A stretch of DNA of 64,000 nt from an uncultured delta proteobacterium (lineage in GTDB: Bacteria; Desulfobacterota; Binatia; UTPRO1), in the NCBI GenBank assembly GCA_963761995.1, contig CAVXIU010000003.1, positions 8,612 through 72,611 on the forward strand. Reading direction: 5' to 3'. The notes beneath the pieces are model-generated. The model was not told the DNA's origin and ran no database searches. It saw nothing but the letters and a program-made list of their open reading frames with translations. This document shows, piece after piece, positions 2,124 to 61,051 of the stretch. Made by a program: the position numbers and the translations under genes. Position 1 is the first letter of the stretch. Each line of letters begins with the position of its first letter.

Positions 2124-2137
2124 TGCGTTGTGCCAGG

Positions 2138-2479
2138 GCGGGCAATCGAGCCTCACTGAGATGGTCGTCGCACAGTTCGTGGCCGAGCTCGCTCCCGCAA
2201 CGATCGACAAGGAGCGCCCCGGTGAAGCGCAGCCGGCACAGATGCTCGTCGTGCCGAGCAGGCGTGAGCGCCCCGCCGGTGAAGACTCCCGCTATCAAAG
2301 GAGCAGCGGGCAATCGAGCCTCACTGAGATGGTCGTCGCACAGTTCGTGGCCGAGCTCGCTCCCGCAACGATCGACAAGGAGCGCTCCGGCGAAGCGCAG
2401 CCGGCACAGATGCTCGTCGTCCCGAGCAGGCGTGAGCGCCCCGCCGGTGAAGACTCCCGCTATCAAAGGAGCAGCGGGC
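2138..2479 (+). repeat. 168-bp tandem duplication
   Basis: Units start at 2138 and 2306, about 3 mismatches, bounded by GCGGGC. Confidence 0.95.
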
Positions 2480-2836
2480 GTCTCGCTCCGCGTCTTTGCC
2501 GGCCGCTGCCCGTATTCGTCCAACTCAGCAGCGAGCGGGCCCGCCACGCGCTGCGTCAGGACTGCTCCTTTGCCAAGCAGCAGGACTCTCCCCCGGCGCT
2601 CCCGGTGGTCGTCTAACGGATAAGCCCGGTCCGCGCGAACGTGACGCTCGCTCCTCTCGTGATGCATACCCCTGCTCCGGCGGCCGTGCGAAGGCCGCCG
2701 CCTGTTGAGAAGCGACGCCTCGGTTTGCCCCTGAGCTCAGACGCGGATGCGCGGCTGCATCAGCGCCTTCTGGGCCTTCGCCCGCGCACAGGGCGTATTA
2801 GCATGATGCCCAGCAGGCAAAGGGAGATTGGCGAGC

Positions 2837-3667
2837 ATGCCTCCGGAAACCTCGATCGCGGAGCACTGGGCCGACCGGGACGTTTATGGTCTTATCGTTT
2901 CGGCGCTGGAGCGAGCGTCGAAGTCTCTGGACTCGTTGACCGTTGAGGAGCTGGCGCCGGTCGACCACTTCCACGCACGTGGGTTCCCGGCCACCATCGA
3001 CCTCGCGGATCGGCTGCCTGTCAAGCCCGGCGACCACCTGCTCGACATCGGCTGCGGGGTCGGTGGCCCGGCTCGCTACTTCGCGCAGCGCTTCGGGTGC
3101 AAGGTCAGCGGGATCGACATCACCGGGCCGTTCGTCGAGGCGGCGAACAAGCTGACCGCGCTGCTCGACATGGGCGACAGGGTCTTCATCGAGCAGGGGC
3201 ACGGCGAGCGGCTGCCCTACGACGACGACTCCTTCGACGGCGCCTATGCGCAGCACGTGACCATGAACGTCGCCGACCGTCCGCGCTTCTTCGGCGAGGC
3301 GTGGCGCGTTCTGAAGCCCGGCGGGTTCTTCGCGCTCACCGAGCACGGCCTCGGCCCCGTGGGAAGCCCGCACCATCCCGTGCCCTGGTCGGAGGACGGC
3401 ACCGGCGAGTTCCTCGTCACGCCGTCGGAGACCCGCGAGCTCCTCGCCGCCGCCAGGTTCGTGAACATCGAGTGCGAGGACACCGGGCCGAAGTACCTGG
3501 CCGCGTACCGGGCCGCGCTGGAGCTCGCCGGCCGGGGTGAGCTGCCGCCGCTCGGCCTGCACGTGCTGATCGGCCCGACGGCGCCCGAGAAGATGCGCAA
3601 TTCGGCCCGCAACATCAAGGAAGGGCGCACGCATCCCGTGCAGATAGTGTGCGGTAAGCCGTCCTGA
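2837..3667 (+). CDS. Class I SAM-dependent methyltransferase
   Basis: LLDIGCGVGG motif I, LPYDDDSFD, RVLKPGG. Confidence 0.9.
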   Translation: MPPETSIAEHWADRDVYGLIVSALERASKSLDSLTVEELAPVDHFHARGFPATIDLADRLPVKPGDHLLDIGCGVGGPARYFAQRFGCKVSGIDITGPFVEAANKLTALLDMGDRVFIEQGHGERLPYDDDSFDGAYAQHVTMNVADRPRFFGEAWRVLKPGGFFALTEHGLGPVGSPHHPVPWSEDGTGEFLVTPSETRELLAAARFVNIECEDTGPKYLAAYRAALELAGRGELPPLGLHVLIGPTAPEKMRNSARNIKEGRTHPVQIVCGKPS

Positions 3668-3974
3668 GCTGACTGGCGGATTGACCGCGTGCCGCCAGCC
3701 GGTCGTCGGCTAATGGCGACGCCTCCTTCGGCCGCAGAGCACTCGTCCTGAGCGAGGCTTCCCTCGCTCGTGAATTGGACGACGACCAGGCGTCCGCCGG
3801 GGCGCGATCGGCCCCACCGCGCTCCTGCATCCGTGGAAAGCAACAGCCACGCTCCCGCTATCACGTTCCATGCAACTCAGGCGCGCCGGCGGTCGTCGTC
3901 CGTACCCCCAGCGCGCTCCTCCTTTCGTGCACGCAAGCGAGCGTCGCCGAGTTCACGCGTCAGACGCTCGCCCC

Positions 3975-4076
3975 GGACGAGCCGCGAGCGTCTCGGGCGG
4001 CTATTGACCCACGCCTGCTCTCGTCGACGATTGCGAAAGCGCGCAGCTTGTTGGGCATCACGACCGGAGCTCGTCC
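3975..4076 (+). repeat. 102-bp repeat with GGACGAGC...GCTCGTCC inverted ends (copy 1)
   Basis: 99/102 identical to 55631-55732. Confidence 0.9.
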
Positions 4077-4177
4077 TGAGCGGGCGCGTGCCGGAGTGCA
4101 GCGTTGATGCTCGCTTTGCGCGCGAGGCAGGAGGCTGGCGCTCGCCGGATCCTCGCCGTCGCCTGGGTCGGCGCCGC

Positions 4178-14093: not shown

Positions 14094-14393
14094 CGCGCGA
14101 GTCTAGACCGGACGTCGCTCGGCCCGAGGAGGCGGCGTCGACGCAAGGACCCACGCCACGCTGCCGCCACTGCGAACACGCGAGCGTCCGGGCCAGCGCC
14201 CCCCGACGCTCGCTGTCGTGCGGATGCGGTCGTCTCCGCTGAGGCGCCGCGGACGATCGCCGTGGGCGAGGTCCGGGCGCGAGGAGAGGCGCGGCCCGAG
14301 TCGTTGTGACGATCGCATCGACCACCAGCGGTCGTGGCCACGAGCGAGCAGCGGGAGTAGTGGCCTGCTGCGGCTGACGCCGTTTCGGGTTGT

Positions 14394-15096
14394 TTAGAGC
14401 TGCAGGCCGGCGCTGGCGGACATCATCGGTGCGCGCCGGGCGTGGACGGTGGCGATGATCTCTTCGGTGTCGATGCCCTGCAGGTAGATCGAGGTGGTGC
14501 CGAGGTTGGCGTGGCCGAGTTGGCGCTGGATCACGTTGAGCGGGACGCCTTCGCGGGCGAGCTCGACGGCGTGGGCGTGGCGCAGCTGGTGCGGCGCGAA
14601 GCGGCGCCGGATGCCCGCTTGCGCGGCGAGCCGGCGGAACTCGACGCGCGCGTTGGCGCTCGACCACGGCCGTCCGCGGGTCGGGCCGTCGATGACGCAG
14701 AACAGCGGTCCGATCGGCAGTTCAACCCGGGCGTCCAGCCAGGGGCGCAGTTGCTCCCAGCCCCAGGTGTCCATGCCGATCTCGCGGCGGCGACCGCCCT
14801 TGCCGTTGCGCACCAGCAGTGAGCCGCGCCGGGCGTCAAGGTCGCGCTCACCCAGCCCGAGTGCTTCCTGGATGCGCAGCCCGCTGCGCCAGAGCACGAT
14901 GATCAGCGCGCGCAGCCTGAAGCCGTGTCGGTCGTCGCCGGTCTGGCGCATCACCGCAATGATCTCCTCCACGGTCGGCGGGTCGGCGGGATAGAGCCGC
15001 CCCTTGTTGCGGGGCGGGCGCCCGGCGTGATAGCCCGGCAGCGTCGCCGGCGAACGCCGCCTGCCGGCGGCATCGAGGACTGGTGAAAACGGTCAT
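14394..15096 (-). CDS. Minimal tyrosine recombinase (catalytic domain), one-base frameshift near the start
   Basis: R (SGLRIQE), K (GKGG), HQLRH, LGH, Y (TSIYL); RBS GGAGG and ATG at 15096 are one base out of frame at a TTTT run. Confidence 0.85.
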
Positions 15097-15343
15097 GGGA
15101 GCCCTCCTCCCAATCGCAGCGGGCAGAGCCCGGTGCCCTACCAGCGCTCGCGCGTCCAGCAAAGGGGAGCGGTCGGAGACCGGGATAGCTTCACCCGGGC
15201 GAAGCGGAAGTGCGTGACTCGTCGACCACAGGACTGAGTGTCGTCCAAGGAAGAAGCAACCGGCGGTCAGCCGAGATGCCTTCTTGCGCGCGGATGCGGG
15301 CGGGGCGACCGCGGGGCACTGTGAAGCAGTGCCCGGGCCGCCG

Positions 15344-16078
15344 TCATTCGGCGACCCGTACGCGATAAGGGCCGGCAAGGCGTGAGGCGGCTGTGCGGCG
15401 CTCCGGCGCCGAGCGGCTGGCTGGCGCGAATGCGCTCCAGGTGAACCACTGACCGAATCCGCGTTGCAGCGTCCGCGGGCCGTTCATCGTCAGCTGGCCG
15501 GCTCGGATCGCGCCGCCCAGATCGGCCCGTCCCAAGTAGACGCGGTACAGCGTGGCGGTGTCGACGATGACCTCGAGGTCGATGTCGAAACCGGGATGCT
15601 GGAGGCAGACTGAGACCTCGGAGGGCTCGAGGACCATCCAGTAGCGCCGCTTGGGGTCGAGAAAGGCGAACTGAACAACCGTTCGGTTGGGTGGGAGCCG
15701 CTGGCGATCGGCGTGGCGGGCCATCCAGACGATCAACAGGGAGGGATCGAGTTCCTCGGGGCGCGGCTCGGTGAACGACCACGTCGCCCCCCACTCGCCG
15801 ATCGCCTGCACGACCGGCTGGAGGTCACGCCCGGCGGGCGTGAGGCGATATTCGAGCGTGCGGCCTTTGGGGCCCGTCCTGCGCTCGATGACCTCGGCCC
15901 GCTCGAGCGCGCGCATGCGGTCGGTGAGGACCGAGCGCGAGATCCCTGGGAGGCCGCGTTGGAGCTCGTTGAAGCCGCTTGCGCCGCCGAGCATCTCGCG
16001 CACGATCAGAAGCGTCCAACGGTCTCCGAGGATCTCGGTGGCATGCGCGACCGGGCAGTACTGGTCGTAGCTGAACAT
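15344..16078 (-). CDS. HxlR family regulator with C-terminal SCP2-like domain
   Basis: YCPVA..LGDRWTLLIVRE, EYRLTPAG; divergent from the FAD oxidase. Confidence 0.9.
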   Translation of the reverse strand: MFSYDQYCPVAHATEILGDRWTLLIVREMLGGASGFNELQRGLPGISRSVLTDRMRALERAEVIERRTGPKGRTLEYRLTPAGRDLQPVVQAIGEWGATWSFTEPRPEELDPSLLIVWMARHADRQRLPPNRTVVQFAFLDPKRRYWMVLEPSEVSVCLQHPGFDIDLEVIVDTATLYRVYLGRADLGGAIRAGQLTMNGPRTLQRGFGQWFTWSAFAPASRSAPERRTAASRLAGPYRVRVAE

Positions 16079-17642: not shown

Positions 17643-18139
17643 CGCCCGCGCCGCGCCGACCGGCGCGACGTGTTCGTGATGAACGCCGACGGCCCACACC
17701 CGCGTAGAGCTGACGAACGAAGCCGGCGTCGCTGGCGAACCAGAGTGGCGCCCCCCGCGCCCGGCCATCTCCGATCCCCGCACACCGGCACCCAGCGTCG
17801 CCTCCAGCCCAGACCACAAGCAAGCGACCGCGCCGCGAGCAGAGCGGGCACGCTCACCGATGCGCTCCTTGCTCTCGCTTCGGGACGAGCAGCAGGCGTC
17901 CGGCGCGACGCCGGCTTGGCTCCTCCTTCTCGTCCCGAGCGAGCGTCTCCTTTGTGGCCACCGACGCTGCCCGGCAGGAGCGAGCGTCTACGACGGCTGA
18001 CGAGGCGCGTCCGTTGCGCAACCAGTCGCCGCCATCGCGTCGGCTCGAGCTCGCCGCCGCCGCCCGCGACGCAAGGTCCGGCATCAGTCACATCGATGCG
18101 CGGTTGACGATCGCTCCTCGGCGAGGAGAGTGTGGGCGT

Positions 18140-24837: not shown

Positions 24838-24891
24838 GACGCCCCTGTCCGGCATAGGATGATCTTCTAGTCACTGGAACGATATTCTCAT

Positions 24892-25518: not shown

Positions 25519-25754
25519 GACCCCCAAGGAGCATGAGGGACGCCGCCACGTCCGACAGCGTCGGCCTGGCCCTACGTCCCGCGACCGCGCGCTGCCGCTT
25601 CGGGCGTTATCCGGGCGTCTCGTTCGTGAAGCCCGACACCCCCGCCCCGGACGACTTGCGATCGTATCCATCTGCGGACGACGGGCTTCCGCATCGGTGG
25701 GATTGCGAGACCGCCGACGTCCTCTACTGGGAGCGTTATCGACGTCGCGATTCA

Positions 25755-25889
25755 GCTGGGCCTGAAGCGCCCGCCATTCCCACAATCGCCGGGAATAGTC
25801 TGCAAATTCCGAACTTCTCGGCGCTGCTCCTGTTTTGCTGAAACTACGCGGTGTCCAGGGATTTCGCGCCTACGCGCCGCTTCGAGGTA
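25755..25889 (+). repeat. Conserved island right arm (second copy at about 32918-33052)
   Basis: TGGGCCTGA...GCAAATTCCGAAC...CCTGTTTTGCTGAAAC...CAGGGATTTCGCGCCT...GAGGTA shared. Confidence 0.9.
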
Positions 25890-25935
25890 ACGACTGAAAA
25901 TCGTGGTGTCCCCGGTTCGAGTCCGGGTCTCGCCA
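25890..25935 (+). repeat. att core: tRNA-Phe 3' part, copy 2
   Basis: Identical to 1888-1933; tRNA 5' half absent. Confidence 0.97.
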
Positions 25936-26383
25936 TCGCCCGCAAAGCCTGATAGCTGCTGAATCTCATTATTTCCGGGGTGTTGGACGAGATCCGCCAA
26001 TTGGGCCTGGGATGCTCCTGATTTGGGCCTGGCCGGCTGAAACGGCGGTAATCCCCGGTAACTGCTGGACATGCCCGGGTGGGCCGTGTGTCGGCCCTGG
26101 GCCGTCCCGATCCCCCATCGTGGTCTCCCGAGTTCGAGTCACACATGCCACGACGCGGCGATCTAGCGTCGCTGACCGGAGTCGTCGAACAGGACGTCCT
26201 CGCCGAGCTCGCTGCCGCACTGCATCGACGAGCAGACGTCGAGCCCGGTTCGGCCGACGCTGCTGTTCCTCGTCCCATGCGAGTGTCTGCGAGGCGGCAT
26301 GGGAACCCCCCGCGAACGACCGAGAGCGGGAGTCGTGAGAGATCCCCTTGCGCGGCGCGGATAACGGCTGCGAGGATCGGCGG

Positions 26384-28124: not shown

Positions 28125-28672
28125 GGCAAGCACACTATTGCCGATCGCCCGCTCGCTCCAGATGCACGCGGATCGTCCGCCGCGACTGATCGGCGCCCTG
28201 ACCTGACGGAGCACGCCCCAACGATCGCCAGCACCGGCGGCCGCTCCCGCCGTACGACCCCCGAACATCAACACAGCCGCCGCCGCTCGGCGGCGGGTCG
28301 CCGCCAGCGTTCTCGGCGAACGCGCGTGACAAGCCACAACGGCCAATGGGCCTTCTTGAAGTCCGAGCACGTGTTGAGCGACACGCACCCTCCCCCCGCA
28401 GAGCGAACGTGAGCTCGGCGCCGCTGCCGACGCCTGCCCTTCGTCCGGAGCGAGCGTCTCAGGCGTGATGAGTGCGGCGCTTGCATCCGGCGTAAGCGGT
28501 CACGAACCGCGCTAACCGGCGATGGAGGGGGTGCTCCCGGAGTCTGTCTCGCGACGCGGCCGTCCGGCGCGGCCTCGGCTAGTGCGGGTGCGGTGTGGGC
28601 GCTCGCCGGCGCGGCCGCCGAAGGAGGGTCGTGGCGGCCGCGCGGGCGGCGAGCGGGTCGCACCTAGCTCAC

Positions 28673-32372: not shown

Positions 32373-33052
32373 GTCTGGACTCACTCCGGGCGGCGACGGG
32401 TCTTGGAGCTCACGTATCGCGTGCATGCGAAAGTCGCGTCTTCGCGTTGCGCCAGCGCCTGACTTGAATCGGACGTCCGATCGACCGACAACCGCGAACA
32501 TCGCCGGCTTCTCGTCTGTATGCCGACGTCCCATCTTCTCGCGACTGCTGCTTCCTGCTTAGTTGCGGGCGTCTTGGTAGCGAACCCGAGACGTCCCCAA
32601 CGGACGATGTGCAGGCGCGTGGATCCGCGCGGAGTGCTTGCCCGCTTCCGCAACGTAGCGAGCGCTGCCCGCCCAACTAGCCGGTTCGCGAGCTCCCGCT
32701 GAATGGAGACGCGGCGCGGCGTCGCATACCCAAGCGAACACGAAGTCACCGCGCACGTCACGGAGGGAACACACGCTGGCCAAGCCGAGCCGGCAGGCAT
32801 CTCTCCGCTCGAGCGCGCGCCGAAGGCGATGCCACGCCGGTCTCTCCTCCGTTCGCCGACGTTCCGGGCGAAGCGCGCCGCGGGCTCCCGTCGTACCGAA
32901 TCGGGACGTGCGGCCGTATTGGGCCTGAGGTGTCCGTCAACCCCAGAATCGCCGAGAAAAGCCCGCAAATTCCGAACATCCGAGCGCTGCACCTGTTTTG
33001 CTGAAACCGCGCAGTTTGCAGGGATTTCGCGCCTGCGGGCCGCTTGGAGGTA

Positions 33053-33098
33053 ACGACTGAAAATCGTGGTGTCCCCGGTTCGAGTCCGGGTCTCGCCA
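33053..33098 (+). repeat. att core: tRNA-Phe 3' part, copy 3
   Basis: Identical to 1888-1933. Confidence 0.97.
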
Positions 33099-33522
33099 TC
33101 CCGAGAACCGCCTGCTAGTAGGTGATTTTCTTGTCGTTGAGGAGACAGTCCTCGTGGCCGAGATACGGGCCAATTTCGGTGCGAGTGCCTAATCGAGTGC
33201 CTAAACCGGAGGCCGCCTTGTGGCGCAGGCGTGCCAGCCGGCGGTGCTTACAGGACCCCTGACAAGCCCGTGGGATGTGCCCGCTGCTTCCTTGAGCACA
33301 TGGTGTAGCGAAGGCCTAGCTGTCGCGTCAGCCGAAGCGGCACTCGGGGTCTCCGCCGGGCGCGCTTCCCCTTTGCATGGAACGCAGCAGAGGACTGGCG
33401 ATCAGCGGGTGTCGGGTGTAGCGTGGCTCGTGGTAGTAGTCAAAAGCGCCGCTGGCAGCTGCCGGGCACCATCCACTTCCGACGCAACACGTCGCACTTG
33501 CGTGCGGACTGGATGACTGACC

Positions 33523-35994: not shown

Positions 35995-36024
35995 GGCTGC
36001 TGCTTTGCATGGAAAGCAGCAGTC
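35995..36024. repeat. Palindromic repeat; 23 bp identical to 45787-45809
   Basis: GGCTGCTGCTTT-GCATGG-AAAGCAGCAGTC. Confidence 0.9.
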
Positions 36025-38579: not shown

Positions 38580-38582
38580 TCA

Positions 38583-42158: not shown

Positions 42159-42178
42159 GACGTGGCGGAGGCGCAGCC

Positions 42179-42996: not shown

Positions 42997-44478
42997 GCCC
43001 TCGCCGCCACGGCGCGCCGGCCGGGGACGCCCACATCCCCCGCGACGAGCTCTGTCGTGACGCGCGCGCCCAGCAGCACCCCGGGGATCCCGGCCCCCGG
43101 GTGGGTGCCGCCGCCGACGTGGTACATGCCTGCGACGTGCCGGTCGCGGTTGGGCTGGCGGAAGTAGGCGGACTGGTGCAGCGCGGGCTCGACGGCGAAG
43201 GCGTTGCCCCAGGCGGCCCCGAGCTGCCGCTCGAAGTCCACGGGGGTCATCCGGTGCTCCACGCGCACCGACGCGTCGAGCCCGGTGAGCCCGAAGGTCG
43301 TGCTCGAAGTCGGCCATGAGCGCGTCGCGCAGCCCGTCCGCCGGCGTCGTCCCAGTCGATGCCCGGCCCGCAGGTTCGGCACCGGGAGGAGCGCGTACAG
43401 GGAGTCGCCACCTGGGCGGCGCCATCCCCGGCTCGGTCCGCGACGGGGCGTGCACGTAGGTCGAGTACGTGCTCGGGGAGGGCCTTGCCGCGCGTGACCG
43501 TGCGGATGAACTTGCGGTAGCCCGAGCCGACGAGCAGCGTGTGGTGCCGGAGCTTCTCGAACGTGCCGGTCCGTCCCGACGTAGAGCAGGAAGCAGGACA
43601 TGGTCGGCCGGAGCCGGCGCCGCTGCGCGGCGCCGGCCGAGCAGCTCATGGGTGCGGAGCACGTCGCCGTTGGAGACGACGACGTCGGCGGCGATGCGCT
43701 CGCCCCCGCGCAGGCGCACGCCCGTGACCCGGCCGCCCTGCTGCTCGATGCGCTCGACCCCGTCGCCGCAGCGGACGTCGAGCGTGCGCGCCAGCGCCTC
43801 CACGAGGGCGTAGACGCCGCCGTCGGTGTACCAGCCCCCGTCGAGCACCTGCAGGTAGACGAGGGCGGCGTAGATCGCGGGCACGCGGTAGGGGTCGCCG
43901 CCGATAAACAGCGAGTGGAAGGAGAACGCCTCGCGGACGCGCTCGTGCTCGAAGTAGCGTGAGCACGAAGCGGTGCAGCGGGCGCACGGCGCCCAGCCGC
44001 ACCATGTCGGGCACGAGCGCCGCAAAGTCGCTTGGCGCCGAGAAAGGGCCGTGTGCCGGCGTCGACCAGACCCCCGCTCGTAGATCGGCTTCAACGCGGC
44101 GAGGAACGCGTCGAGCGCGCCGCGCATCGCGCGTGGAGAAGCGTGGCGATCTCCTCCTTCAGTCGCGCCGGATCGTCCGCGAAGTCGAAGTGCCGGTCGT
44201 CGCCGGCCCAGAAGATCCGGTAGAGCGGGTCGAGCCGCCGCATCGTGACCTCGGAGTGAAGGTCCAAGCCACCCGCGGCGAAGGTTTCCTCGAGCACCCA
44301 GGGCATCGTGATCAGCGACGGGCCCATGTCCCACGTGTAGCCCTGGTCGCGCAGCTGGTAGGCCCGCCCGCCGGGACGCTCGCGCTGCTCGACGACGGTT
44401 ACGTCGTGGCCCATGCCCTGCAGGCGAAGCGCGGCGCGCGAGGCCGCCGAGGCCGGCGCCGACGACGACGACCTTCAC
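42993..44478 (-). pseudogene. crtI: Phytoene desaturase with multiple frameshifts
   Basis: VVGAGLGGL, WDMGPSLITMP, FHSLFIGG and THPGAGIPGVLLGA spread over three frames. Confidence 0.85.
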
Positions 44479-45506
44479 GCGATCACGTGCTCTCCGCCGA
44501 GCTCGCGCGAGGCCGAAGCCCCGGCGGCCCAGGTTGCGATCCGCAGCTGCTCGACCAGCGTACGGAGCGCCTCGTCGAGCCGGTCGGCCTGAGCGGCCAG
44601 CAGCAGCGGGCGGGCGAGCCCGGCGGCTCTCGCGCCGAGTGCGAGGCACTTCGCGGCCTCCACGCCATCGTGCACGCCGCCGGAGGCGATCACCGGCAGG
44701 CCTTCGGCCACTGCGACCGCGCCGCGCACAGCGTTCGCGGTCGGCACGCCCCAGTCTCCGAAGGCCGCCGCGAGGCCCTCGGCGCCCGGGGTCCGCCGCC
44801 CCTCGATGAGAGCCCAGTTCGTCCCGCCTGCACCGGCGACGTCGACCGCGGCCACCCCGGCGTCGCGCAGCTGCACAACGTCCGCGGGGGAGAGCCCGAA
44901 CCCGACCTCCTTGACCACGACGGGCCGGGGCGCCAGTCGTGCGACCGCCCCCGCGATGCCCGCGAGCACCCCGCTGAAGTCCGGCTGTCCCTCAGGCTGA
45001 ACCGCTTCCTGGAGCGGGTTGAGGTGGATGGAGAGGCCGTCGGCGTCGAGCAGCGCGACGAGGCGCTCTGCGCGCTCAGGCCCCGCCGGGCCGCGGATCT
45101 GCGCCGCCCCGAGGTTCGCGAGCAACAACGGTGGACGCTCGGCGCGATCAGGACGATAGGTGCGCAGGAGCTCGGGGTCCTCCAGCAGCCGCCGGCCCGA
45201 TCCCAGCACCAGCGCGATCTGCCACCGCGCCGCCGCATGCGTCAGCCGCGCGTTGAGCTCAGCCGCCTCCGGGGTCCCGCCCGTCATGGCGGAGACGACG
45301 AGCGGCGCCTCCAGCCAGGCGCCGAGCAGCTCGGTCCGGAGACTGACCTCGGAGAGCGCGCGCTCGGGCAAAGCCCGGTGGCGCAGCCGGACACAATCCA
45401 GCCCGGTCCCGCGGCCGTGCTCCACCCCGGAGCCCGCGGCAATCCGCAGGTGGTCGGCCTTGCGCGCGGCTTCTGCAGGGGAAAGGGGGCGGCGGGTCGG
45501 TGACAC
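44475..45506 (-). CDS. fni: Type 2 isopentenyl-diphosphate delta-isomerase
   Basis: RKADHL, SAMTGG, HLNPLQE, VKEVGFG, AGAGGTNW, ASGG. Confidence 0.93.
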   Translation of the reverse strand: MSPTRRPLSPAEAARKADHLRIAAGSGVEHGRGTGLDCVRLRHRALPERALSEVSLRTELLGAWLEAPLVVSAMTGGTPEAAELNARLTHAAARWQIALVLGSGRRLLEDPELLRTYRPDRAERPPLLLANLGAAQIRGPAGPERAERLVALLDADGLSIHLNPLQEAVQPEGQPDFSGVLAGIAGAVARLAPRPVVVKEVGFGLSPADVVQLRDAGVAAVDVAGAGGTNWALIEGRRTPGAEGLAAAFGDWGVPTANAVRGAVAVAEGLPVIASGGVHDGVEAAKCLALGARAAGLARPLLLAAQADRLDEALRTLVEQLRIATWAAGASASRELGGEHVIA

Positions 45507-45780: not shown

Positions 45781-45809
45781 GCTGTCGCTTTGCATGGAAA
45801 GCAGCAGTC
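45781..45809. repeat. Palindromic repeat copy
   Basis: GCTGTCGCTTTGCATGGAAAGCAGCAGTC, same orientation as 35995. Confidence 0.9.
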
Positions 45810-48274: not shown

Positions 48275-48892
48275 GCATCGTGCTCAGCGACAACGGCGCA
48301 CTACCGCTCCGAGGCCGCAGCGGCGCGCTAGGGGAAAGCCCCCGTCGCGCGTCAAGTCGTGTCTCCGACCATTAGGTCGTCCACCTCGACGAGCAGGTCC
48401 AGGAGAAGGATCCGTGTCTCCTCGAGCGTGGCGCTCCAGGCGGCTCGGAGGAGCGCGTTCGCGAGATCTCGTCTCTCGGAGGGCGAAAGACCTTCTACTT
48501 CGATGCGCAGCGCCCTCACGGCAGGACTCCCCGGTGCTCGAGCAGGGACGGCATTTCACTCATGAAGAGCATCAGCGACTACTTCTGGCCCCGGCTCATG
48601 GGAGTTCGCCGAGTCGGATGCGCGCGCGAGCTTTGCACAGGTGCTTGTTGACATTGGTGTAGGTGCGGCCTCCGGTCATCTGGGCGATCTCGCGGCGGCC
48701 CGTCAGCGCGGCGGGCCTACTCGGGCCCAGCGCGTCACCTAAGCGAGCGCCCTGTCGACGCGAAGCGCACAGACTCCTCCTTCATCTAGCCGAATTTCGC
48801 GTTGTGCTCGCTGCCGCCGCAGCGTTTGGCCGGGCGGGCGAGCAGCGGTAGCGTCCGCCGGGCAGCCGTAACCGAGTGTGAGGGGGGGCCCG

Positions 48893-52100: not shown

Positions 52101-52733
52101 TGTTGCCGCGCGCGGACGTCAGCTGAACATGTGAGAGAGAAGCAGGAGCAGGGGCCTGCGCCGCACCGCTCTTGCTGTGGACGAGCGGCGAGTGCGCCGC
52201 GCGACCCAGTGCGGACGCCTGCTTTGCCGTGGGGTGCAGGCCTCAGAGAGCGGGTATCCGACGCGCCCGGTGCTCGTCCGAGGCAGGCGTGTCCGACTCG
52301 AGGCGTCGGCGCCTGCTCGCAAGGGAGAAGCGGGCGTCCACACCCCGACGGTTCCTGACGGGCACCCGGGGGCGGGTGAAATGAGCGATCCTGCGGCGGT
52401 CGCTTGCTGCGGCCCGCGTTTCGCTTTGTGCCCTTGAGCCCGCTCAAAGTCTGGCGTGGGAGCCTCGCCGGGAACCCGGATTGGTGCCTTGAGCCCGCCC
52501 TTGAGTCCTACGTCCGTGAGTAGGGCGCCTGCAGTAAGCGTGCTCGCGGGCGGTGGCGTGATCGGTCCTGAGTCAGAAACTCCCGCTTGGTGCCGAGAGG
52601 CGTACGCCGAGCTTCTTCCCGATGTGCCCAATGTTGGGTGTGAGGGCAATCGCCGGCGGGGCTCCCCGCCGACGCAGACGCCGCTGAGGCCGTGCTCGAT
52701 GAGCATTCGTGTGACCGCTACGCGGTAGAGGCG

Positions 52734-53297
52734 TCAGGCGGGTTGCCGGGACCTGGGCTTCCTTTGTGGGGCGAGCTCGCGCTCGACGTCGTCGAGGAGT
52801 TCCTCGTGCAGCTCGAGGAAGCGGCGCAGAAACCCGGTGACGAGCCGCAGGTATTTCTCGCGGTGCGGGAGGTCGGCTGCGCGGCGCTCGGCGTCTTGGA
52901 GGCGCGCGGCGATGTCGGCGAGGTCGTCGCGCAGGGTGGCCATGCTCTCGCGCGTGACCTCCTCGCCGACGAGGTCGCAGATGAGCAGGCGCAGGAGTGC
53001 GTCGCTCTTGAGCGGCGTGAAGGCGACGGAGTTGCGCGCGTACTCGCGCAGCGCGTCGAGTCCCTTGTCGGTGAGCGTGTAGACGGTGCGCTCGCGGGTC
53101 TTGCCGGGCTCCTTGCGGGCCTCGAGGTAGCCGAGGTTCGCGAGGCGCTTGGGCTCGGTGTAGTACTGGCTCTCGCCGGCCCAGGCGAGCATCCGGCCGC
53201 GCTGCGCCATGCGCAGCAGGTCGTGCGGGCCGGCGCCATCGCGGCCGACGAGGCCCAGGATCTCGATGGCGAAGAGGCTAAGTTCGGTGGTGGCCAT
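52734..53297 (-). CDS. PadR family regulator
   Basis: SQYYTEPKRL..LGYL, VYTLTDKG. Confidence 0.85.
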   Translation of the reverse strand: MATTELSLFAIEILGLVGRDGAGPHDLLRMAQRGRMLAWAGESQYYTEPKRLANLGYLEARKEPGKTRERTVYTLTDKGLDALREYARNSVAFTPLKSDALLRLLICDLVGEEVTRESMATLRDDLADIAARLQDAERRAADLPHREKYLRLVTGFLRRFLELHEELLDDVERELAPQRKPRSRQPA

Positions 53298-53381
53298 GTA
53301 ACGGACAGGCTCCTCGCTTGACAAGGCTACAGTTCATAGCTTACCGTAGCTATGGTCCATAGGCTAGTGAGAGGAATGGAC

Positions 53382-54182
53382 ATGACATCGACCGCCGTCA
53401 CAGGCAGCGCCGAACGCTGGGGGGCGCTGTGGGGCGCACGCCCCGCGGACTGGGCGCTGAGCGAGGACCAGCAGGTGCCGACCTACGCGGAGGCGCTGAG
53501 GCGTGTCGGGCTCGAGCCGGCGCAGCTGGTGCTCGACATCGGCTGCGGCGTCGGGGCGTTCCTGCGCCTCGTCACGGACGGCGACGCGCGCGCGTTCGGC
53601 TTGGACGCCTCCGACGCGCTGCTCGACGTCGCTCGCCAGCGCCTGCCGGACGCCGATCTTCGGGTCGGCGAGATGGAGGCGCTGCCCTACGAGGACGACA
53701 CGTTCGACCTCGTCACCGGCTTCAACTCGTTCTTCTTCGCTAACGACATCATCGCCGCGCTTCGCGAGGCCGGCCGTGTCGCCAAGCCGGGGGCCCCGAT
53801 CGTCATCCAGGTCTGGGGCCCTCACGAGGGCAACGACCTCGAGGCGGTGAAGACGATCATCAGGCCGTACTTCCCGCCTCGCCCAGCGGACGCGCCCCCA
53901 GAGCCCGACTACTCCAAGCCCGGCGTGCTCGAGGACATCGCCGGCAAGGCCGGCCTCGAACTCGAGAGCACGTTCGACAGCACCTGGTCCTACGAGTTCC
54001 CCGACGAGGAGGCCGTCCGGCGCGCGCTCATCGCACCCGCCGGGATCGCGGTCCTCGTCGGTCCCGACCACGAGAACGAGGTCAAGGACGCGATCGTCGA
54101 AGGACTCGCGACGCATCGCGCCCCTGATGGGACTTACCGGCTTCAGAACACCTTCCACTCCCTCATCGCCCGCGCACGATGA
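53382..54182 (+). CDS. Class I SAM-dependent methyltransferase
   Basis: VLDIGCGVG, LPYEDDTFD. Confidence 0.9.
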   Translation: MTSTAVTGSAERWGALWGARPADWALSEDQQVPTYAEALRRVGLEPAQLVLDIGCGVGAFLRLVTDGDARAFGLDASDALLDVARQRLPDADLRVGEMEALPYEDDTFDLVTGFNSFFFANDIIAALREAGRVAKPGAPIVIQVWGPHEGNDLEAVKTIIRPYFPPRPADAPPEPDYSKPGVLEDIAGKAGLELESTFDSTWSYEFPDEEAVRRALIAPAGIAVLVGPDHENEVKDAIVEGLATHRAPDGTYRLQNTFHSLIARAR

Positions 54183-54499
54183 GCTACTACGCCGTCATCC
54201 GACAAGCCGGCCCGGGCTGGAACGAGGGTGGAATCGCCGCGCAGCCGGACGTCGCCGACCACGCCGCGTTCATGAACGACCTCGCCGACGAAGGCTTCGT
54301 CCTCTTCGCCGGGCCGCTCGCCGGAAGCGAGAACGCGCGCCTGCGCGCCCTGCTGATCGTAGACACCAACAGCGAAAACGCGATCCGCGACCGCCTCGCC
54401 GACGACCCCTGGGCGCGCACGAACCGCCTCGCGATAACGCGCATCGAGCCCTGGAACCTAATCGTCGGAGCGGAGCGGCTCGCAGCGCTCGCAAGTTGA
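54179..54499 (+). CDS. YciI family protein
   Basis: HAAFM, AGPL, DDPW; coupled to the upstream gene. Confidence 0.8.
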   Translation: MSYYAVIRQAGPGWNEGGIAAQPDVADHAAFMNDLADEGFVLFAGPLAGSENARLRALLIVDTNSENAIRDRLADDPWARTNRLAITRIEPWNLIVGAERLAALAS

Positions 54500-54739
54500 G
54501 AGAGGAGACCGAGCGACCGCTCCCCGTTCGAGTTGAGCTGGACTCCGTTGGGCGGCGAGCGTCTCACGGGGTCGGGTCAGACGCCCGCATCGGGCCGCAG
54601 AGGACGCGCGAGCCGATCTACGATCGCGGTGCTCGAGCGGGCCGTGCGCGCGCCCTCGGCAACCGGGCGGCTTGGCGAACAAGCGATCCGATCCCCTTTG
54701 ATGAGATCCAACTGCGCTCTCCGAACGGAGGACCGTGAC

Positions 54740-55546
54740 ATGAACACCACCAAGCACCACGAGGGCTGGGCGCTGCGGGAGTCCGGCCCGGCCGACGCAG
54801 ATCACGCGGTGCTATTGCTCGCGGGAGCCCTCGTCACGGCGACGTACTACGAGGACGTGCTGGCAGAGCCGAGGCTGAAGGAGGCGTCGGCCCGCTTCGT
54901 GGCTGCGACGCTGCCGGGACACGGCGGCACTCAGCCTCCGGAGGATCTCAGCATGGACAACTACGCGAGGCTCGCGGGCAAGCTCGCCGCCGACTTCCGC
55001 TGCGACGCTGTGGTCGGCCATAGCCTGGGCGCCAACGTGGCAATCGAGATGCTCGCCGCGGGCCACTTCTCCGGGTCGCTGGTGCTGCTTGCGCCGAGCT
55101 TCTCACGCGAGGACGAGTCCAAGTTTCCGCGCGCGCTTGATCGCATCAGCCGCGTGCTCGGGCATCTGCCCTATGCGGCGATGCTAAAGGTGATCGGGCC
55201 AGCGATGAAGAGCAGCTTGCCGCCGGATCGCAGCAATTCGCTGATCGCGGAGATGAAGAGGAACGATCCGCGCTTCCTGCAACGCCAGACCCGCCGTTAC
55301 CTCGACTACCTGGACCGCCACGGCTCGCTGGTCTCCCGCCTGTGCGATACGGGCGCCCGGGCGTGCGTCGTGTTCGGCGAGCGCGACGACGTCGGACTAG
55401 CCGACGACGAACGGCGCGCGCTCGAGGCGTGCCCTCACGTGGCCGTCGTCACGATCCCCAACGCGGGTCACTTCACGCTCAACGAGGAGCCCGGTCGGAT
55501 CGCTGAACTGATCATCCAGATGGTCTCCGCGGACGCGGCGCGCTGA
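54740..55546 (+). CDS. Alpha/beta hydrolase
   Basis: LPGHG, GHSLGA, AGHF. Confidence 0.85.
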   Translation: MNTTKHHEGWALRESGPADADHAVLLLAGALVTATYYEDVLAEPRLKEASARFVAATLPGHGGTQPPEDLSMDNYARLAGKLAADFRCDAVVGHSLGANVAIEMLAAGHFSGSLVLLAPSFSREDESKFPRALDRISRVLGHLPYAAMLKVIGPAMKSSLPPDRSNSLIAEMKRNDPRFLQRQTRRYLDYLDRHGSLVSRLCDTGARACVVFGERDDVGLADDERRALEACPHVAVVTIPNAGHFTLNEEPGRIAELIIQMVSADAAR

Positions 55547-55630
55547 CAACGAGTCGGACACGCGCGACGCAGAGTGTCGCTCTCGCCCGGATGCGGTCGT
55601 CTCCACCGACGCCTACGAGGCGCCTGTTCG

Positions 55631-55732
55631 GGACGAGCCGCGAGCGTCTCGGGCGGCTATCGACTCACGCCTGCTCTCGTCGACGATTGCGAAAGCGCGC
55701 AGCTTGTTGAGCATCACGACCGGAGCTCGTCC
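55631..55732 (+). repeat. 102-bp repeat (copy 2)
   Basis: 99/102 identical to 3975-4076. Confidence 0.9.
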
Positions 55733-55959
55733 TTTGCGAGCGTGGGCGCGACGGTTGCTCGGACGCTCGCTGTCCCCCGGTACCAGTAGTCAGCCAGCCC
55801 GCGCGGCGCGAACCGCCCCGGTGTTGAGCCGAGTCAGGCGCCGTTTACCGCGGGCCGGTGATCCGGGGTCGGCAGCCGGAGCGAGACGGCGCTGATATTC
55901 GCGCCTGGCGGCGCGTGGATCGGTACGGTCGCGTCAAGCTAATCGTGGAGGTTGCTGCC

Positions 55960-56247
55960 GTGTATGTACGTGTCGTCAGGTTCAGTGATGTGAGCGCCGA
56001 GCGAATCGAAGGGCTGCGGGCCCGCATCGAGGAGTCCGACGGACCGCCGCCCGGCATCCCCACCACCGGCCTGAAGGTGCTCTACGACGGAGAACAGGGA
56101 ACCGCCGTGGTGCTCCAGTACTTCGCGACCGCGGAGGACATGGACGCTGGCGCCCAGGCGTTCGGCGCGATGGACGCGGCCGAGACGCCGGGAACGCGCG
56201 CCTCCGTGGACATGTGCGAGCTCGAGCTCGAGCTCGAGGCGTCTTGA
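55960..56247 (+). CDS. Small hypothetical protein (possible dimeric alpha-beta barrel)
   Basis: RBS GGAGG, GC3-rich codons. Confidence 0.7.
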   Translation: MYVRVVRFSDVSAERIEGLRARIEESDGPPPGIPTTGLKVLYDGEQGTAVVLQYFATAEDMDAGAQAFGAMDAAETPGTRASVDMCELELELEAS

Positions 56248-56473
56248 CGCTGGGCTAGCTCGTCGAGCCCACGCGGCGATCGCGTGGCCGATCTGCGTGC
56301 AGGACAGCAGGCGTCCCAGAGCTCCGGGAATCGTCAGCGAGTTCGAAACACCGACAGCCCGAGCCGCGGCGGGTCGCGCGCATCAGCTCTGCTAGGCGCG
56401 AGTGCCATCTCACGAAGGTTCATGTGCGAGCCTCCACCGCGCGGGCGTAGTGTTGGCGGCCACGGAGCCCCCC

Positions 56474-56878
56474 GTGAACCACCCGCCGCGCGATTCCCCG
56501 ACCACCGTCGAGCAGTTGCTCGCCGCAGCCCGCGGTCAGCTCGCCCGGTTGAGCCCACGGGAGGCCGATGCCGCGATGCGCGACGGCGCGAAGCTGGTCG
56601 ACATCCGCTCCGACCGCCAGCGTGCCGCTGACGGCACGATCCCGGGCGCGTACTTCGTGCCCCGCAACGTGCTCGAATGGCGCCTCGACCCCGCGTGCGC
56701 TCACCGCGACGCTGAGCTCGCCCGAAGCGACGCCGCGCTGATCCTGATCTGCGACGAGGGCTATCAATCCAGCCTCGCCGCCGCCACGGTCCGACGATTC
56801 GGCGAGCGTCCGGTCACAGACGTCGTCGGCGGATTCCGCGCGTGGAGAGCCGCGGGGCTCCCCGTCCGGTCAAAGTAG
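56474..56878 (+). CDS. Rhodanese-like protein
   Basis: LVDIR, GTIPGA, ICDEGYQSS, VGGFRAW. Confidence 0.88.
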   Translation: MNHPPRDSPTTVEQLLAAARGQLARLSPREADAAMRDGAKLVDIRSDRQRAADGTIPGAYFVPRNVLEWRLDPACAHRDAELARSDAALILICDEGYQSSLAAATVRRFGERPVTDVVGGFRAWRAAGLPVRSK

Positions 56879-56955
56879 CCGCGCGGCGTGGCGATCTCGA
56901 CCGGACGCCGTTGGTCTGAGATGCTCAGTGGCCTGGTCCCGACTGGAGGGCGGCG

Positions 56956-57318
56956 ATGAAGATCACGTACTTCGTCAGCGCGGGCGTGGGCGACGCGACG
57001 CGCGCGTCGATCCCGCTGCATCTGGCGGCCAACGGCTCGGTCGAGGTGGGGCAGGAGACGTCGATCATCCTCGGCGGCGACGCCGCAGAGTTGCTGCTGG
57101 GCGACAACCTGCAGACGCTGGAGGGCGTGGGCGTGCCGCCCGCGCGCGAGCTGCTTGCCAAGCTCCGGGACCACGCGGTCCCGGTGTTTGTCTGAAAGGG
57201 CTGCGCCGTCGCCCGTGGGGCGAACGACGAGGACCTGGAGAAGGTCAACGGCAGCTGGGTGACCCCGCCTGATGTGGCGCGGCTCTTTGGCGAGAGTGAC
57301 CGCGTCGCGACCTTCTGA
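56956..57318 (+). CDS. DsrE/DsrF-like protein, probable selenoprotein (UGA at 57193-57195)
   Basis: Read-through gives VPVFV-U-KGCAVARG...DRVATF (120 aa); hairpin just 3' of the UGA. Confidence 0.8.
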
Positions 57319-57469
57319 GCGGCTTGTCTAGCATCGGTCCCGGTAGAGCCGTTGTGGACGGCGGTTGCCGCGCGCGTGGCGCGGCTGCTGTCTGCTAGCC
57401 GTCTGGCCGGGAGAGCCCTCAGCCGAGCCGGGCCGCCCACCGGCCCCCTGCCGACGATTCTCTGGCGAG

Positions 57470-58394: not shown

Positions 58395-58504
58395 ACGGTC
58401 GTCTCAGCGTCCACGGGTCGCCGATGTTGAGCCAGCAGCTCGGCATTCAGGACAGTCGGAACTCGTCCCGAGCGTGAGCGGCGGCAAGCGACTGTGGGCA
58501 GGAT

Positions 58505-58969: not shown

Positions 58970-58983
58970 CCTGAATGAGGCCC

Positions 58984-59014: not shown

Positions 59015-59058
59015 AGTCCGCGAACGGTCCAACCGACAAGACCCGAGGAGGTAGACAG

Positions 59059-59427: not shown

Positions 59428-59502
59428 CAAGCCGACCACTTGCGTGCGCCGACGACGCACGCGGCGTGAGTACCCCCCAACCGACCGAACAGGAGGTAGG
59501 CA

Positions 59503-59889
59503 ATGCCGAAGGCATCGAAGGAAACGGCGTCTGCGCATGAGACGCTCGATGGCTACGAAGGCCACTTCGAGCACTTCGCAGACGGCTGGACCGTGGGTTT
59601 CGAGACCTACACGCAGGACGCGGATCTGTCCCCGTTGTTCAAGGGGCTCACGAATGACGAGTGCCAGTGCGAGCACATGGGCTACGTGATCAAGGGAAGG
59701 GTCGCGTTTCGCTCAGGCGACACCGAGGAGGTGTTCCAGGGCGGCGACGCGTACTACGTCGGCCCAGGCCACACCCCGATCCTCTACGCCGGCACCGAGG
59801 TGGTGGAGTTCAGCCCCACCGAGGAGCTCGGCCGGACCATGGAGGTCGTGACCAAGAACCTGGAGGAAATGGAGCCCGCGTCCTCCTGA
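59503..59889 (+). CDS. Cupin-like protein
   Basis: CQCEHMGYV, PGH, VEFSP. Confidence 0.8.
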   Translation: MPKASKETASAHETLDGYEGHFEHFADGWTVGFETYTQDADLSPLFKGLTNDECQCEHMGYVIKGRVAFRSGDTEEVFQGGDAYYVGPGHTPILYAGTEVVEFSPTEELGRTMEVVTKNLEEMEPASS

Positions 59890-59899
59890 GGAGCAGCCC

Positions 59900-59924
59900 G
59901 GGCGCCCGCATCTTGCGGGCGCCC
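59900..59924 (+). terminator. GC-rich hairpin after the cupin gene
   Basis: GGGCGCCCGCA-TCT-TGCGGGCGCCC. Confidence 0.55.
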
Positions 59925-60293
59925 GCCGCCGCGCCGGTCAGGGCCTCGGCGCAAATGACCGGCCTCCCGCTTCGCACGCGCTAAGCAAGCGTCTCGGCGA
60001 CCTCGGCATAGATGCCCGCTCCGGACGAGCTACGACAGTCCTGCTCGGATTCCGGCTCGCTCTCGCATGATTCGCGAAGCAGGCGCGTAGCCTCAACCCT
60101 CCGTCTAGTGAGCGGCAGTGCGGCTAAGCGAAATCCTTACGCCGAGGACGTGCGGCGAAAAAATGGAGATGAGACGCCTCCATCTCCTGAACTGCGTGCA
60201 AAGCGCGCAAATAGCGGGCCCCTGCTTGAAGCTCTGGTCAGCGGAGAACCTCGTGGTTTCCAGGGATTGCGCGTCTTCAGCCAACACAGCCCG

Positions 60294-60340
60294 CACGACT
60301 GAAAATCGTGGTGTCCCCGGTTCGAGTCCGGGTCTCGCCA
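60294..60340 (+). repeat. att core: tRNA-Phe 3' part, copy 4
   Basis: Identical to 1887-1933. Confidence 0.97.
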
Positions 60341-61051
60341 TGTTGGGGCCCGGAATCCCGCATGTGCTGGATTCTCTGGTCGGTGGTGCAACGCATTCTC
60401 AAGCTTTGCCGCACACGGGCAGAAATCGTGGTCGTTTCAGTTCTAGTGACGAGGCCGCGAACCGCTTGCTCGGGGAGTGCCCCGGCCTTGTCCGCTTCCT
60501 GCGAAGGGTGTGGACCATCCGGCCGAAACGCGCCGCGATCTCCTTTTTGTCTCCGATTTCTTGAGGTTGGTCGAGGGTTGCGCACCCGCGCTCAGGCCTC
60601 GCGTCGTGCGAGATTTGGCCGGCGTCGCGGTGGCAGTCTGTTTGCCCGAGCACCGCGGTCTCGCGGCCCTGGCGCGCCGTCCATGCGCTGACTCACGTGC
60701 GGTGTCGGGAATGCCCGTACCCACGTCGGAGCGGGCGCCTGCAGAGTCACGGACGGACGCCCGCAAATCATCCCGAGCGGGCGTTGGCCGACGCGACTTC
60801 GAGGCGCTCGCTCCTCGTCCCAAGCGAGCGTTCGACGCCTGGACTCGGGGACGTTCGCTTCGATGGGGAAGAAGGAGCACTCGTTCCCGCTCGGTCCCTA
60901 AGCGTGCTGGTTGGCGCTCTGGGCGCCAGGTCGGGTCGGCGGCTGGGAGTGGGGCGATGGATCGCCGGTGCGCACGCGCGGGCTGCCCGGCACGGCCCGA
61001 GGGTCGGACCGTGCCGGGCACAAACGCGAAGCAGCGCGGCGCCTGCGGCTA

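Follow-up and report, generated by a model that had tools for sequence, protein, structure and literature searches.

The window analysed here, 64,000 nucleotides (nt) at positions 8612-72611 of the 102-kb contig C3 (G000:C3:8612-72611) in a 7.7-Mb assembly of 70% G+C, seems to carry a site-specific recombination module system that is like the dif modules, has its own recombinase and is not an integron, a reading drawn from sequence comparison to which we would give a probability of about 0.62. In outline, a very small tyrosine recombinase is encoded amid a family of short palindromes, which are probably recombination sites, and accessory modules of a few genes lie between them. The initial annotation of this DNA had tied palindromes to a minimal tyrosine recombinase and had supposed that modules are rearranged there; this core inference passed the three checks proposed with it (spread of the motif over core DNA, co-occurrence with the recombinase family and position of breakpoints), and the annotation is largely right in what it observed and partly supported in its interpretation. 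The system appears undescribed in the literature searched, and no paper on such a system was found in the full-text literature, in which subscription journals are mostly outside coverage.

Each site is about 31 bp long and consists of two inverted arms of about 12 bp, with the consensus sequences AGACGCCCGCNN and NNAGCGGGCGTCT, flanking the asymmetric heptamer CTCGTCC. The core sites of Cre/loxP and Xer/dif likewise have inverted arms around an asymmetric spacer of 6-8 bp, and the 12-7-12 layout found here appears to match the core site of a Cre/Xer-type tyrosine recombinase, in which the heptamer would be the crossover region. A site matrix trained on 50 metagenome sites only, and read at a threshold of at least 16 or at least 18 bits, picks 19 sites in the window, one of them 130 nt past the window's own recombinase gene. 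At 18 bits or more C3 (102 kb) has 19 sites and the main contig C6 (7.0 Mb) has 5, a 260-fold higher density on C3, and the small contigs carry 45 sites per Mb against 0.71 on C6, so that the motif is not spread over core DNA. Codon-bias gene calls leave long gaps at all 14 places that had been listed as non-coding blocks, and 12 of the 14 hold at least one site of 16 bits or more, the two without being those at 23.5-24.0 kb and 48.3-48.9 kb. Apart from the sites of the recombinase cassette and of the mini-modules, which are given below, the sites of the window are as follows, with distances to the fragments of a tRNA-Phe gene discussed further on:

2402..2436 (+), heptamer 2416: site, 19.4 bits, with a second copy at about 2248 in a duplication
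3763..3797 (-), heptamer 3777: weak site, 16.9 bits
17864-17907 (-): weak partner of site 17929, covariance model (R1) E 0.11
17915..17949 (+), heptamer 17929: site, 24.9 bits, R1 E 1.1e-5
25635..25669 (-), heptamer 25649: site, 22.5 bits, 240 nt left of tRNA-Phe fragment 2
26255..26289 (+), heptamer 26269: site, 25.4 bits, 333 nt right of tRNA-Phe fragment 2
28426..28460 (+), heptamer 28440: site, 24.0 bits, R1 E 3.3e-6
32588..32622 (-), heptamer 32602: site, 24.5 bits, 450 nt left of tRNA-Phe fragment 3
58448..58482 (+), heptamer 58462: site, 19.9 bits
60009..60043 (-), heptamer 60023: site, 21.5 bits, R1 E 6.3e-5, 271 nt left of tRNA-Phe fragment 4
60800..60834 (+), heptamer 60814: site, 32.7 bits, R1 E 1.9e-6, with a weaker copy at 60749-60791

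A 168-bp tandem duplication (2138-2473, 98% identity) doubles one site together with its neighbouring arm palindrome.

The centre TCGTCC/GGACGA that the initial annotation had recognised is real: the pattern CTCGTCCNGAGCGRGCGTC, allowing up to two mismatches, has 8 matches in the window against 0.14 expected, a number reached by none of 100 shuffles. With up to one mismatch it occurs ten times in the genome, always between genes, on C3, C9, C11 and C14 and never on C6, while among 300 other genomes of the class it is matched in 28, at most twice per genome, a range equal to that of a reversed-pattern control. The covariance model R1 was built from 17 copies of this genome alone; two of the 12 pairs in its structure string were offset by one column, and pair counts were taken from the corrected string. 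In 427 kb of small-contig DNA it detects 24 copies at E<0.01, and it gives 2 weak copies on C6 (150 of 13,119 candidates scored) and single matches in 2 of 60 relatives (105 candidates scored per genome). Comparison of the blocks by blastn and nhmmer gave weak similarity limited to the small contigs, and generic hairpins are not raised on C3 (6.79 per kb of non-coding DNA, against 6.58 on C6).

There is no compensatory change in the arms (paired cells 61.3%, shuffle mean 64.0%), and the best-conserved part of the site is the centre with one arm, a pattern more in keeping with binding by a protein than with a folded RNA or DNA. A reading as RNA structure was rejected, as the arms do not covary and Rfam finds only tRNA. 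The 13 palindromes listed in the initial annotation stand in part: four are core sites (17919, 26256, 28429, 60804), three are arm palindromes adjoining a core site (2449, 8798, 32541), three belong to a separate small TTGCATGGAA family and not to the core family (33364, 35995, 45781), and three are unsupported, those at 2504 and 3821 not being detected as hairpins and that at 2560 being a generic hairpin. The shared half-sites noted there (a 12-mer and an 8-mer) are present in the window, and the TGCATGGA palindromes, which had been counted in the same family, lie outside it. Strict palindrome patterns are rare, and an 18-nt pattern scan of the genome contigs returned mostly chance single matches among the matches listed. 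The separate small palindrome family, GCTGYYGCTTTGCATGGAAAGCRRCAGC, lies at 33364-33390, 35995-36024 and 45781-45809 of the window and at C9:37788 and is without the CTCGTCC core.

The open reading frame (ORF) at 14394-14972 encodes the catalytic domain of a tyrosine recombinase and is the sole PF00589 match on C3 (103 bits). As the initial annotation had stated, the gene ends right beside a block, and the downstream site, with its heptamer at 14264, lies 130 nt past the stop codon. The gene and its surroundings comprise:

14394..15095 (-): recombinase gene of a family of 233 amino acids (aa), PF00589 103 bits; homologues are 233 aa long and start MTVSPVLD
14264..15246 (-): recombinase cassette, 983 nt between inverted heptamers, laid out as in metagenome loci; homology to one of these, L176, stops at both heptamers
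14250..14284 (-), heptamer 14264: site downstream of the recombinase, 20.0 bits, 130 nt past the stop codon
15226..15260 (+): decayed site on the upstream side of the recombinase, reading GTCGTCC at 15240, 11.4 bits; breakpoint against the metagenome loci L210 and L176

A protein search returned at least 7975 clusters at E<=1e-20; the top 120 of these are 85-98% identical, mostly 233 aa long and with PF00589 as their sole domain; the family is currently annotated only as 'XerD'. The catalytic signature of the domain (Arg, His-x-x-Arg, His, Tyr) is present, with R74, H169 and R172 invariant and H173 nearly so (alignment A4), as are the GH and IY motifs. The N-terminal 41 residues are basic and highly conserved (D8, G11, R14, G25, P28, K31 and G32 are invariant in 16 sequences), and in an AlphaFold model, whose mean predicted local distance difference test score (pLDDT) is 82.9, they form coil, the remainder being the catalytic domain. 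By structure comparison of this model the fold is nearest to XerA (template modelling score, TM, 0.67) and XerH, a further likeness to the Xer/dif type. No core-binding domain was detected: there is no Pfam match before residue 40, and C3 is without a PF02899 match. Relatives sharing about 50% identity have lengths of 300-350 aa, with an additional 90-130 residues at the N terminus. Simple tyrosine recombinases are classed, in PMC8138268, as a core-binding plus a catalytic domain. In contrast to such simple Xer-like enzymes, the present one has a conserved basic arm of 41 residues in place of the core-binding domain.

Decayed fragments of the recombinase gene are found at C11:16830-16946 (72%) and C16:5576-5728 (86%, both as protein-level identity), and two site copies follow the C11 fragment within about 20-100 nt.

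The association of gene and site was followed in soil metagenomes. A search of metagenome contigs with the recombinase gave at least 599 pattern stretches, with 370 confirmed relatives among them, and the best 80 of the 370, chosen only for encoding the recombinase, make up 372,651 nt; they are 68-94% identical to it, nearly all over the full query. In these loci the model R1, built from this genome only, has 70 matches at E<=0.1, and these fall in a fixed geometry, with a (+) copy 72-120 nt past the gene in at least 23 loci and a (-) copy about 230-310 nt ahead of the matched part in at least 15. Exact heptamers have the same placement: GGACGAG lies 255-303 nt upstream of the gene in 16 of 63 usable loci (wrong orientation, 1 of 63), and CTCGTCC 88-135 nt past the stop codon in 29 of 70 (wrong orientation, 2 of 70). 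The recombinase gene between inverted site copies thus forms a cassette of 927-1015 nt in the metagenome loci, and sites and recombinase family co-occur at fixed positions. Two independent models agree here, the genome-built one finding its sites in the metagenome loci and the metagenome-built matrix finding its sites in the window. Loci with several sites come from metagenome-assembled genomes titled Actinomycetes, Actinomycetota, Solirubrobacteraceae and Thermoleophilaceae (36 of 120 genome-contig loci were examined), and some recombinase loci lie on contigs of 1.2-2.0 Mb. A recombinase homologue was found in one of 300 other sampled genomes of the class (G097, 62% identity); its abundance in metagenomes beside this rarity suggests that it may reside in regions usually omitted from bins.

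Two of the metagenome loci, L200 (1049-1781, 6001-6576) and L252 (1318-1981, 4232-4804), each hold a pair of oppositely oriented recombinase cassettes separated by 2.3-4.2 kb. In L212 (3932-4889) and L217 (1792-2763) a segment of about 1 kb between two sites adjoins the recombinase, and its counterpart at C14:81679-82652, 84-85% identical, has no site within 20 kb.

The sites have an ordered architecture. Adjacent sites in the window alternate in orientation in 14 of 18 pairs (p=0.03), and in the metagenome loci 34 of 41 adjacent pairs that do not span the gene do so (p=2.5e-5). The (+)...(-) segments are cargo, whose size ranges over 0.3-5.2 kb among the loci and 1.5-7.7 kb within the window, and the (-)...(+) segments are of three kinds, namely mini-modules, the recombinase cassette and pieces with a tRNA-Phe fragment, the last represented in the window by 25649-26269 and 60023-60814 (0.6-0.8 kb). 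Mini-modules are 94-97 nt long and are found in other soils too, with the central arm pair kept. Four blocks of the window share a composite of about 200 nt made of a (-) and a (+) copy with heptamers 94-95 nt apart; the orientation of these composite blocks was dropped as an argument, the block itself being nearly palindromic. The mini-modules, and the cargo module between the last two, are:

3975..4076, heptamers 3975 (-) and 4070 (+), 95 nt apart: mini-module 1, 35.4 and 35.8 bits
8670..8770, heptamers 8670 (-) and 8764 (+): mini-module 2, 18.9 and 32.3 bits, also from alignments
52179..52279, heptamers 52179 (-) and 52273 (+): mini-module 3, 19.9 and 34.3 bits; 52273 is a breakpoint against L176
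52280..55630: cargo module X, with a PadR-like regulator, a methyltransferase, a 106-aa ORF and an alpha/beta hydrolase (Pfam); inverted in L176
55631..55732, heptamers 55631 (-) and 55726 (+): mini-module 4, 31.6 and 33.4 bits; the cassette is in its place in L176

The region of mini-module 1 is 84% identical to 55618-55771.

The cargo of the window consists of unrelated accessory functions by Pfam (methyltransferases, an aldehyde dehydrogenase, a molybdenum oxidoreductase, a P450, BBE oxidases, hydrolases, a carotenoid cluster and a major facilitator superfamily (MFS) pump), in modules of 1-8 genes that lie on both strands, many with a regulator of their own (Crp, LuxR, HxlR, TetR, SARP, PadR, MerR). 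Sixty-two genes were called in the window by codon bias, and the coding fraction of C3 is 0.759 against 0.864 on C6. The possibility that the blocks are pseudogene remnants was rejected, as blastx against the genome's own ORFs left just two small cases, at 22940-23098 and 48361-48700.

The central heptamer is where breakpoints between related sequences lie. Across the 80 loci, similarity around the gene stops within about 300 nt upstream and 175 nt downstream, and the flanks are unrelated; cassettes as close as 99.5% identity stand in unrelated flanks. Similarity in 20 pairs of loci whose cassettes are at least 90% identical breaks off on the left no more than 15 nt from the heptamer in 12 of 14 usable cases, and on the right no more than 10 nt from it in 6 of 10. 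Locus L176 is the most informative: its positions 20-1860 correspond to window 54109->52270 reversed (93.3%), followed by the recombinase cassette (86.5% to window 15250->14264) and then by window 55720-57332 (96.0%), and the switch points, after GCCTGCCTCGGACGAG and before CTCGTCCTTTGCGAGCG, lie within the heptamers of sites 52273 and 55726. Compared with the window, therefore, module X (52273-55631, 3.4 kb) is inverted in L176 and the cassette replaces a mini-module of 95 nt. In L210 the window flank 15247-15600 (HxlR side, 89%) is joined to the downstream heptamer instead of the upstream end of the cassette, implying that the recombinase cassette has been flipped. Together the comparisons show the site family, its link with the recombinase and breakpoints in the heptamer for a single inverted module, a single flipped cassette and many relocated cassettes. 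The blocks had been taken for scars of cassette gain and loss; inversion and replacement are what the comparisons show instead.

On the mechanism suggested by these comparisons, the very small recombinase (233 aa) would act on sites of about 31 bp with crossover in the CTCGTCC heptamer. Recombination between inverted sites would flip the segment between them, an outcome known from comparison only; with direct sites two apart, a module and a mini-module would be excised together, and two crossovers, or a cointegrate followed by resolution, may swap segments between molecules. The recombinase gene is itself a module bounded by two inverted sites. We infer that it is this enzyme which catalyses the events, and that excision and exchange occur. 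A bolder formulation, to which we would give slightly less than even odds, is that of a self-encoded module exchange platform of soil Actinomycetota, in which a 233-aa recombinase without a core-binding domain and lox-like sites of 31 bp flip, excise and swap modules, including the recombinase gene itself, between replicons, and which, among known enzyme/site pairs of the Cre type, would be the smallest.

Part of the same evidence could be read as the work of a transposon similar to an insertion sequence (IS), in which the cassette of about 1 kb is an autonomous element with terminal inverted repeats, the mini-modules are its non-autonomous copies and the cargo is merely the DNA between insertions. 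The 99.5% identical cassettes in unrelated flanks and the mini-modules with the same inverted ends, at 94-97 nt in other soils, would be expected of such an element, and the alternation of sites, which would follow automatically, is explained equally well. However, both ends are the same asymmetric heptamer in inverted copies, and a Cre/Xer-type enzyme acting on inverted copies of one asymmetric core produces inversion, not excision, so that inversion fits this arrangement better. Furthermore, the inner sequences of mini-modules and cassette are unlike each other beside the heptamers, which argues that the mini-modules are not simple deletion derivatives, and the inversion of module X at sites in L176 needs site-to-site recombination anyway. 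We therefore hold a transposon of this kind to be rather unlikely.

Still less probable, in our judgement, is that the cassette and the mini-modules are phase-variation switches, that is invertible promoter segments of the hin/hix or fimS type by which adjoining genes would be turned on and off, with module exchange as a by-product. The recombinase does lie inside its own invertible segment, both orientations of which are found against one flank, the architecture of the mini-modules is conserved across soils, and the enzyme has the size of the FimB/FimE invertases. The alignment of the NCBIfam invertase model extends over almost its full length, yet the score of 51.5 bits is far under the cut-off of 222. 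Kilobase cargo modules flip too, the genes next to the sites have no common orientation relative to them, and the 95 nt between crossover points would be very short for an intramolecular flip.

A second layer of repeats in the window consists of one tRNA-Phe gene and eight copies of its 3' 33-49 nt, five on C3, two on C18 and one at the end of C10. The initial annotation had overlooked the gene and the three 48-nt fragments in the window:

1860..1935 (+): tRNA-Phe(GAA) gene, left end of the fragment array (ARAGORN, Rfam)
25889..25936 (+): tRNA-Phe 3' fragment 2, 48 nt, from repeat comparison
33052..33099 (+): tRNA-Phe 3' fragment 3, 48 nt, from repeat comparison
60294..60341 (+): tRNA-Phe 3' fragment 4, 48 nt, from repeat comparison

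The 48-nt repeats are 98-100% identical. The sequence to the right of the tRNA-Phe gene is 90% alike to that right of fragment 2 over 148 nt, and the sequences left of fragments 2 and 3 are 83% alike over 136 nt. Further fragments lie at C3:77966, C3:84734, C18:30943, C18:42773 and C10:18479. An array of this kind is what serial integration at one tRNA gene usually leaves behind, and it forms an ordinary second layer. Decayed elements of the cis-mobilisable element (CIME) type also occur as tandem islands at tRNA genes, and integrase-less remnants are common among them. The tycheposon islands, in 10.1101/2020.12.28.424599, have partial tRNA repeats that mark successive integrations, and integrase-less remnants are again common; the likeness covers the fragment layer only. 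No tRNA-Phe fragment occurs in any of the 80 metagenome loci, so that the tRNA layer is a local addition. In four of the five fragments on C3 a (-) site stands 190-450 nt to the left, so that the two layers are interwoven.

Could serial integration at tRNA-Phe by a classical integrase, with the palindromes as passive repeats of the repetitive extragenic palindromic (REP) or bacterial interspersed mosaic element (BIME) type, explain the whole? The gene with eight copies of its 3' part, the likeness of the fragment flanks (90% for 1/2 and 83% for 2/3) and the lack of compensatory change in the arms would suit this. There is, however, no integrase beside any fragment, the sole PF00589 match on C3 lying about 11 kb from the nearest repeat, and no serine recombinase on the small contigs; the 80 loci hold sites without any tRNA-Phe fragment, and position and breakpoints both connect the sites with the recombinase. 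Nor does a frequency of 0.71 sites per Mb on C6 resemble high-copy chromosomal REP/BIME repeats, and no gene of the REP-associated tyrosine transposase (RAYT) type (PF01797) is found on the small contigs. The idea is largely refuted and very improbable, and the REP/BIME alternative raised in the initial annotation finds no support. As a candidate in its own right, a REP-like family was likewise rejected for its low copy number on C6, the 0-2 matches per genome in 300 genomes of the class and the lack of RAYT on the small contigs.

A true integron, in which IntI captures promoterless cassettes through folded single-stranded attC sites, shares with the window palindromic sites between gene modules and a tyrosine recombinase, but is refuted on membership and practically negligible, since the integron-integrase models TIGR02249 and NF011946 score 64.3 and 55.4 bits (over residues 111-168 only) against cut-offs of 265 and 435, the core is CTCGTCC and not GTTRRRY, the modules lie on both strands with their own regulators and the sites alternate instead of pointing one way. 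The integron-like label of the initial annotation falls with it.

Several observations weigh against the reading of the window as a dif-like module system with its own recombinase. The matrix scan finds no site in the 19-kb stretch at 33.1-52.1 kb. The window's copy of the recombinase gene carries a single additional T within a T run at codon 4, with the ATG at 15095 out of frame with the rest, leaving an open frame from GTG 14972 of 192 aa; this T is a genuine frameshift or else a homopolymer error from long-read assembly. With the upstream site decayed to 11.4 bits as well, the system may be a fossil in this genome, and the site copies, which are 60-85% alike, suggest that activity here may be long past. 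Sites of at least 16 bits were found upstream in 23 of 66 metagenome loci, downstream in 43 of 73 and on both sides in 15 of 60, leaving many loci without a recognisable site, and the matrix behind these counts was trained on a subset of the same sites. The G097 homologue has neither a site of 12 bits or more nor any clear inverted repeat in its flanks. Alternating orientation would also result from the insertion of an element with inverted ends, so that it does not separate the explanations. The comparisons use short metagenome contigs, and a mis-join at a repeat is possible for any single one. No excised circle or deletion form is present among the sequences compared. The tRNA-Phe repeats by themselves account for part of the modularity. 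Finally, C3 may stem from a different organism or replicon than C6, in which case the density contrast of the sites may partly be one between organisms.

Soil sequence runs were also compared. Twenty of them contain 12-17% of the sampled words of window 24001-34000, and four (Logan contigs; patches 95-99% identical) gave no credible joint at tRNA repeats or sites; the joints listed from these four have sides of 20-27 letters, one of 46, and are neutral on excision.

The small contigs may represent a replicon apart from C6 or an organism binned together with it. All 59 tRNAs of a full set are on C6, including its own tRNA-Phe, which is 80% identical to that of C3, and the C3 version is absent from 12 genomes of the same family. 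The common hairpin arms of C6 are not present on C3, no close orthologues are common to the small contigs and C6, and the left-flank gene is not conserved within the genus. Repeats are common to the small contigs C3, C9, C11 and C14 but not to C6. C6 has abundant hairpin families of its own, with arms such as GAAGGGGGA and TCCGCGCG in 57-65 copies, and 22 weak matches to PF01797 (Y1 transposase family), all on C6 in ORFs of 235-705 aa; together these could be a REP/RAYT system that is absent from C3. Within the window, the carotenoid-type cluster at 36998-45371 has a G+C content of 74-78%, above the rest, and some of its genes look truncated against Pfam (SQS_PSY from profile position 98, FMN_dh from 215). 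An IS110-family (RNA-guided) transposase gene, single copy in the assembly, lies at 34337-35362, and soil contigs stack at high depth over 33.3-35.3 kb.

The nearest described relative is the dif-module system of Acinetobacter plasmids, a comparison that the initial annotation had made in passing and which is much closer than that with integrons. In PMC13141974, the dif modules that Rep_3/OrfX plasmids carry show alternating oriented sites, two module classes, inversions and deletions between sites of the same spacer and a proposed movement through cointegrates. Short oriented sites between few-gene accessory modules, alternation with two module classes (14/18, 34/41) and related molecules that differ by inversion or replacement at same-spacer sites (L176, L210) are all found here as well. 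In contrast, the plasmid site is a 28-bp XerC-6-XerD site and that of the window a 12-7-12 site with the spacer CTCGTCC; the plasmids use the XerC/XerD of the host, whereas a dedicated 233-aa recombinase inside a module is found here; and here one module class consists mostly of 'empty' segments of 95 nt and the hosts are soil Actinomycetota, with some loci on contigs of 1.2-2.0 Mb. Shufflons (R64 Rci/sfx) have several inverted sites and one locus-encoded tyrosine recombinase, which inverts segments within one gene singly or in groups. The window resembles them in its several inverted sites, its one recombinase encoded at the locus and its segments that invert singly or in groups; these segments, however, are unrelated multi-gene cargo where those of shufflons belong to one gene, and among the segments that can flip is the recombinase gene itself. 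Integrons are alike by analogy in combining a recombinase with sites for module gain and rearrangement, whereas the present system has no IntI insertion, attI, Pc or attC (attC judged by the core CTCGTCC) and has sites of the double-strand type.

If the reading is correct, the 233-aa recombinase and its 31-bp site would offer a compact candidate for use in the engineering of genomes of high G+C content, and a general question that can be tested is whether dif-type module systems are run by a dedicated enzyme without a core-binding domain. To our knowledge, integrons and dif modules are uncommon in Actinomycetota; the system would be their functional counterpart there and would explain how accessory modules of a few genes are shuffled in abundant, little-studied soil actinobacteria. 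As the recombinase is found in one of 300 genomes against 370 relatives among at least 599 metagenome stretches, a sizeable mobile gene pool of these bacteria may go uncounted.

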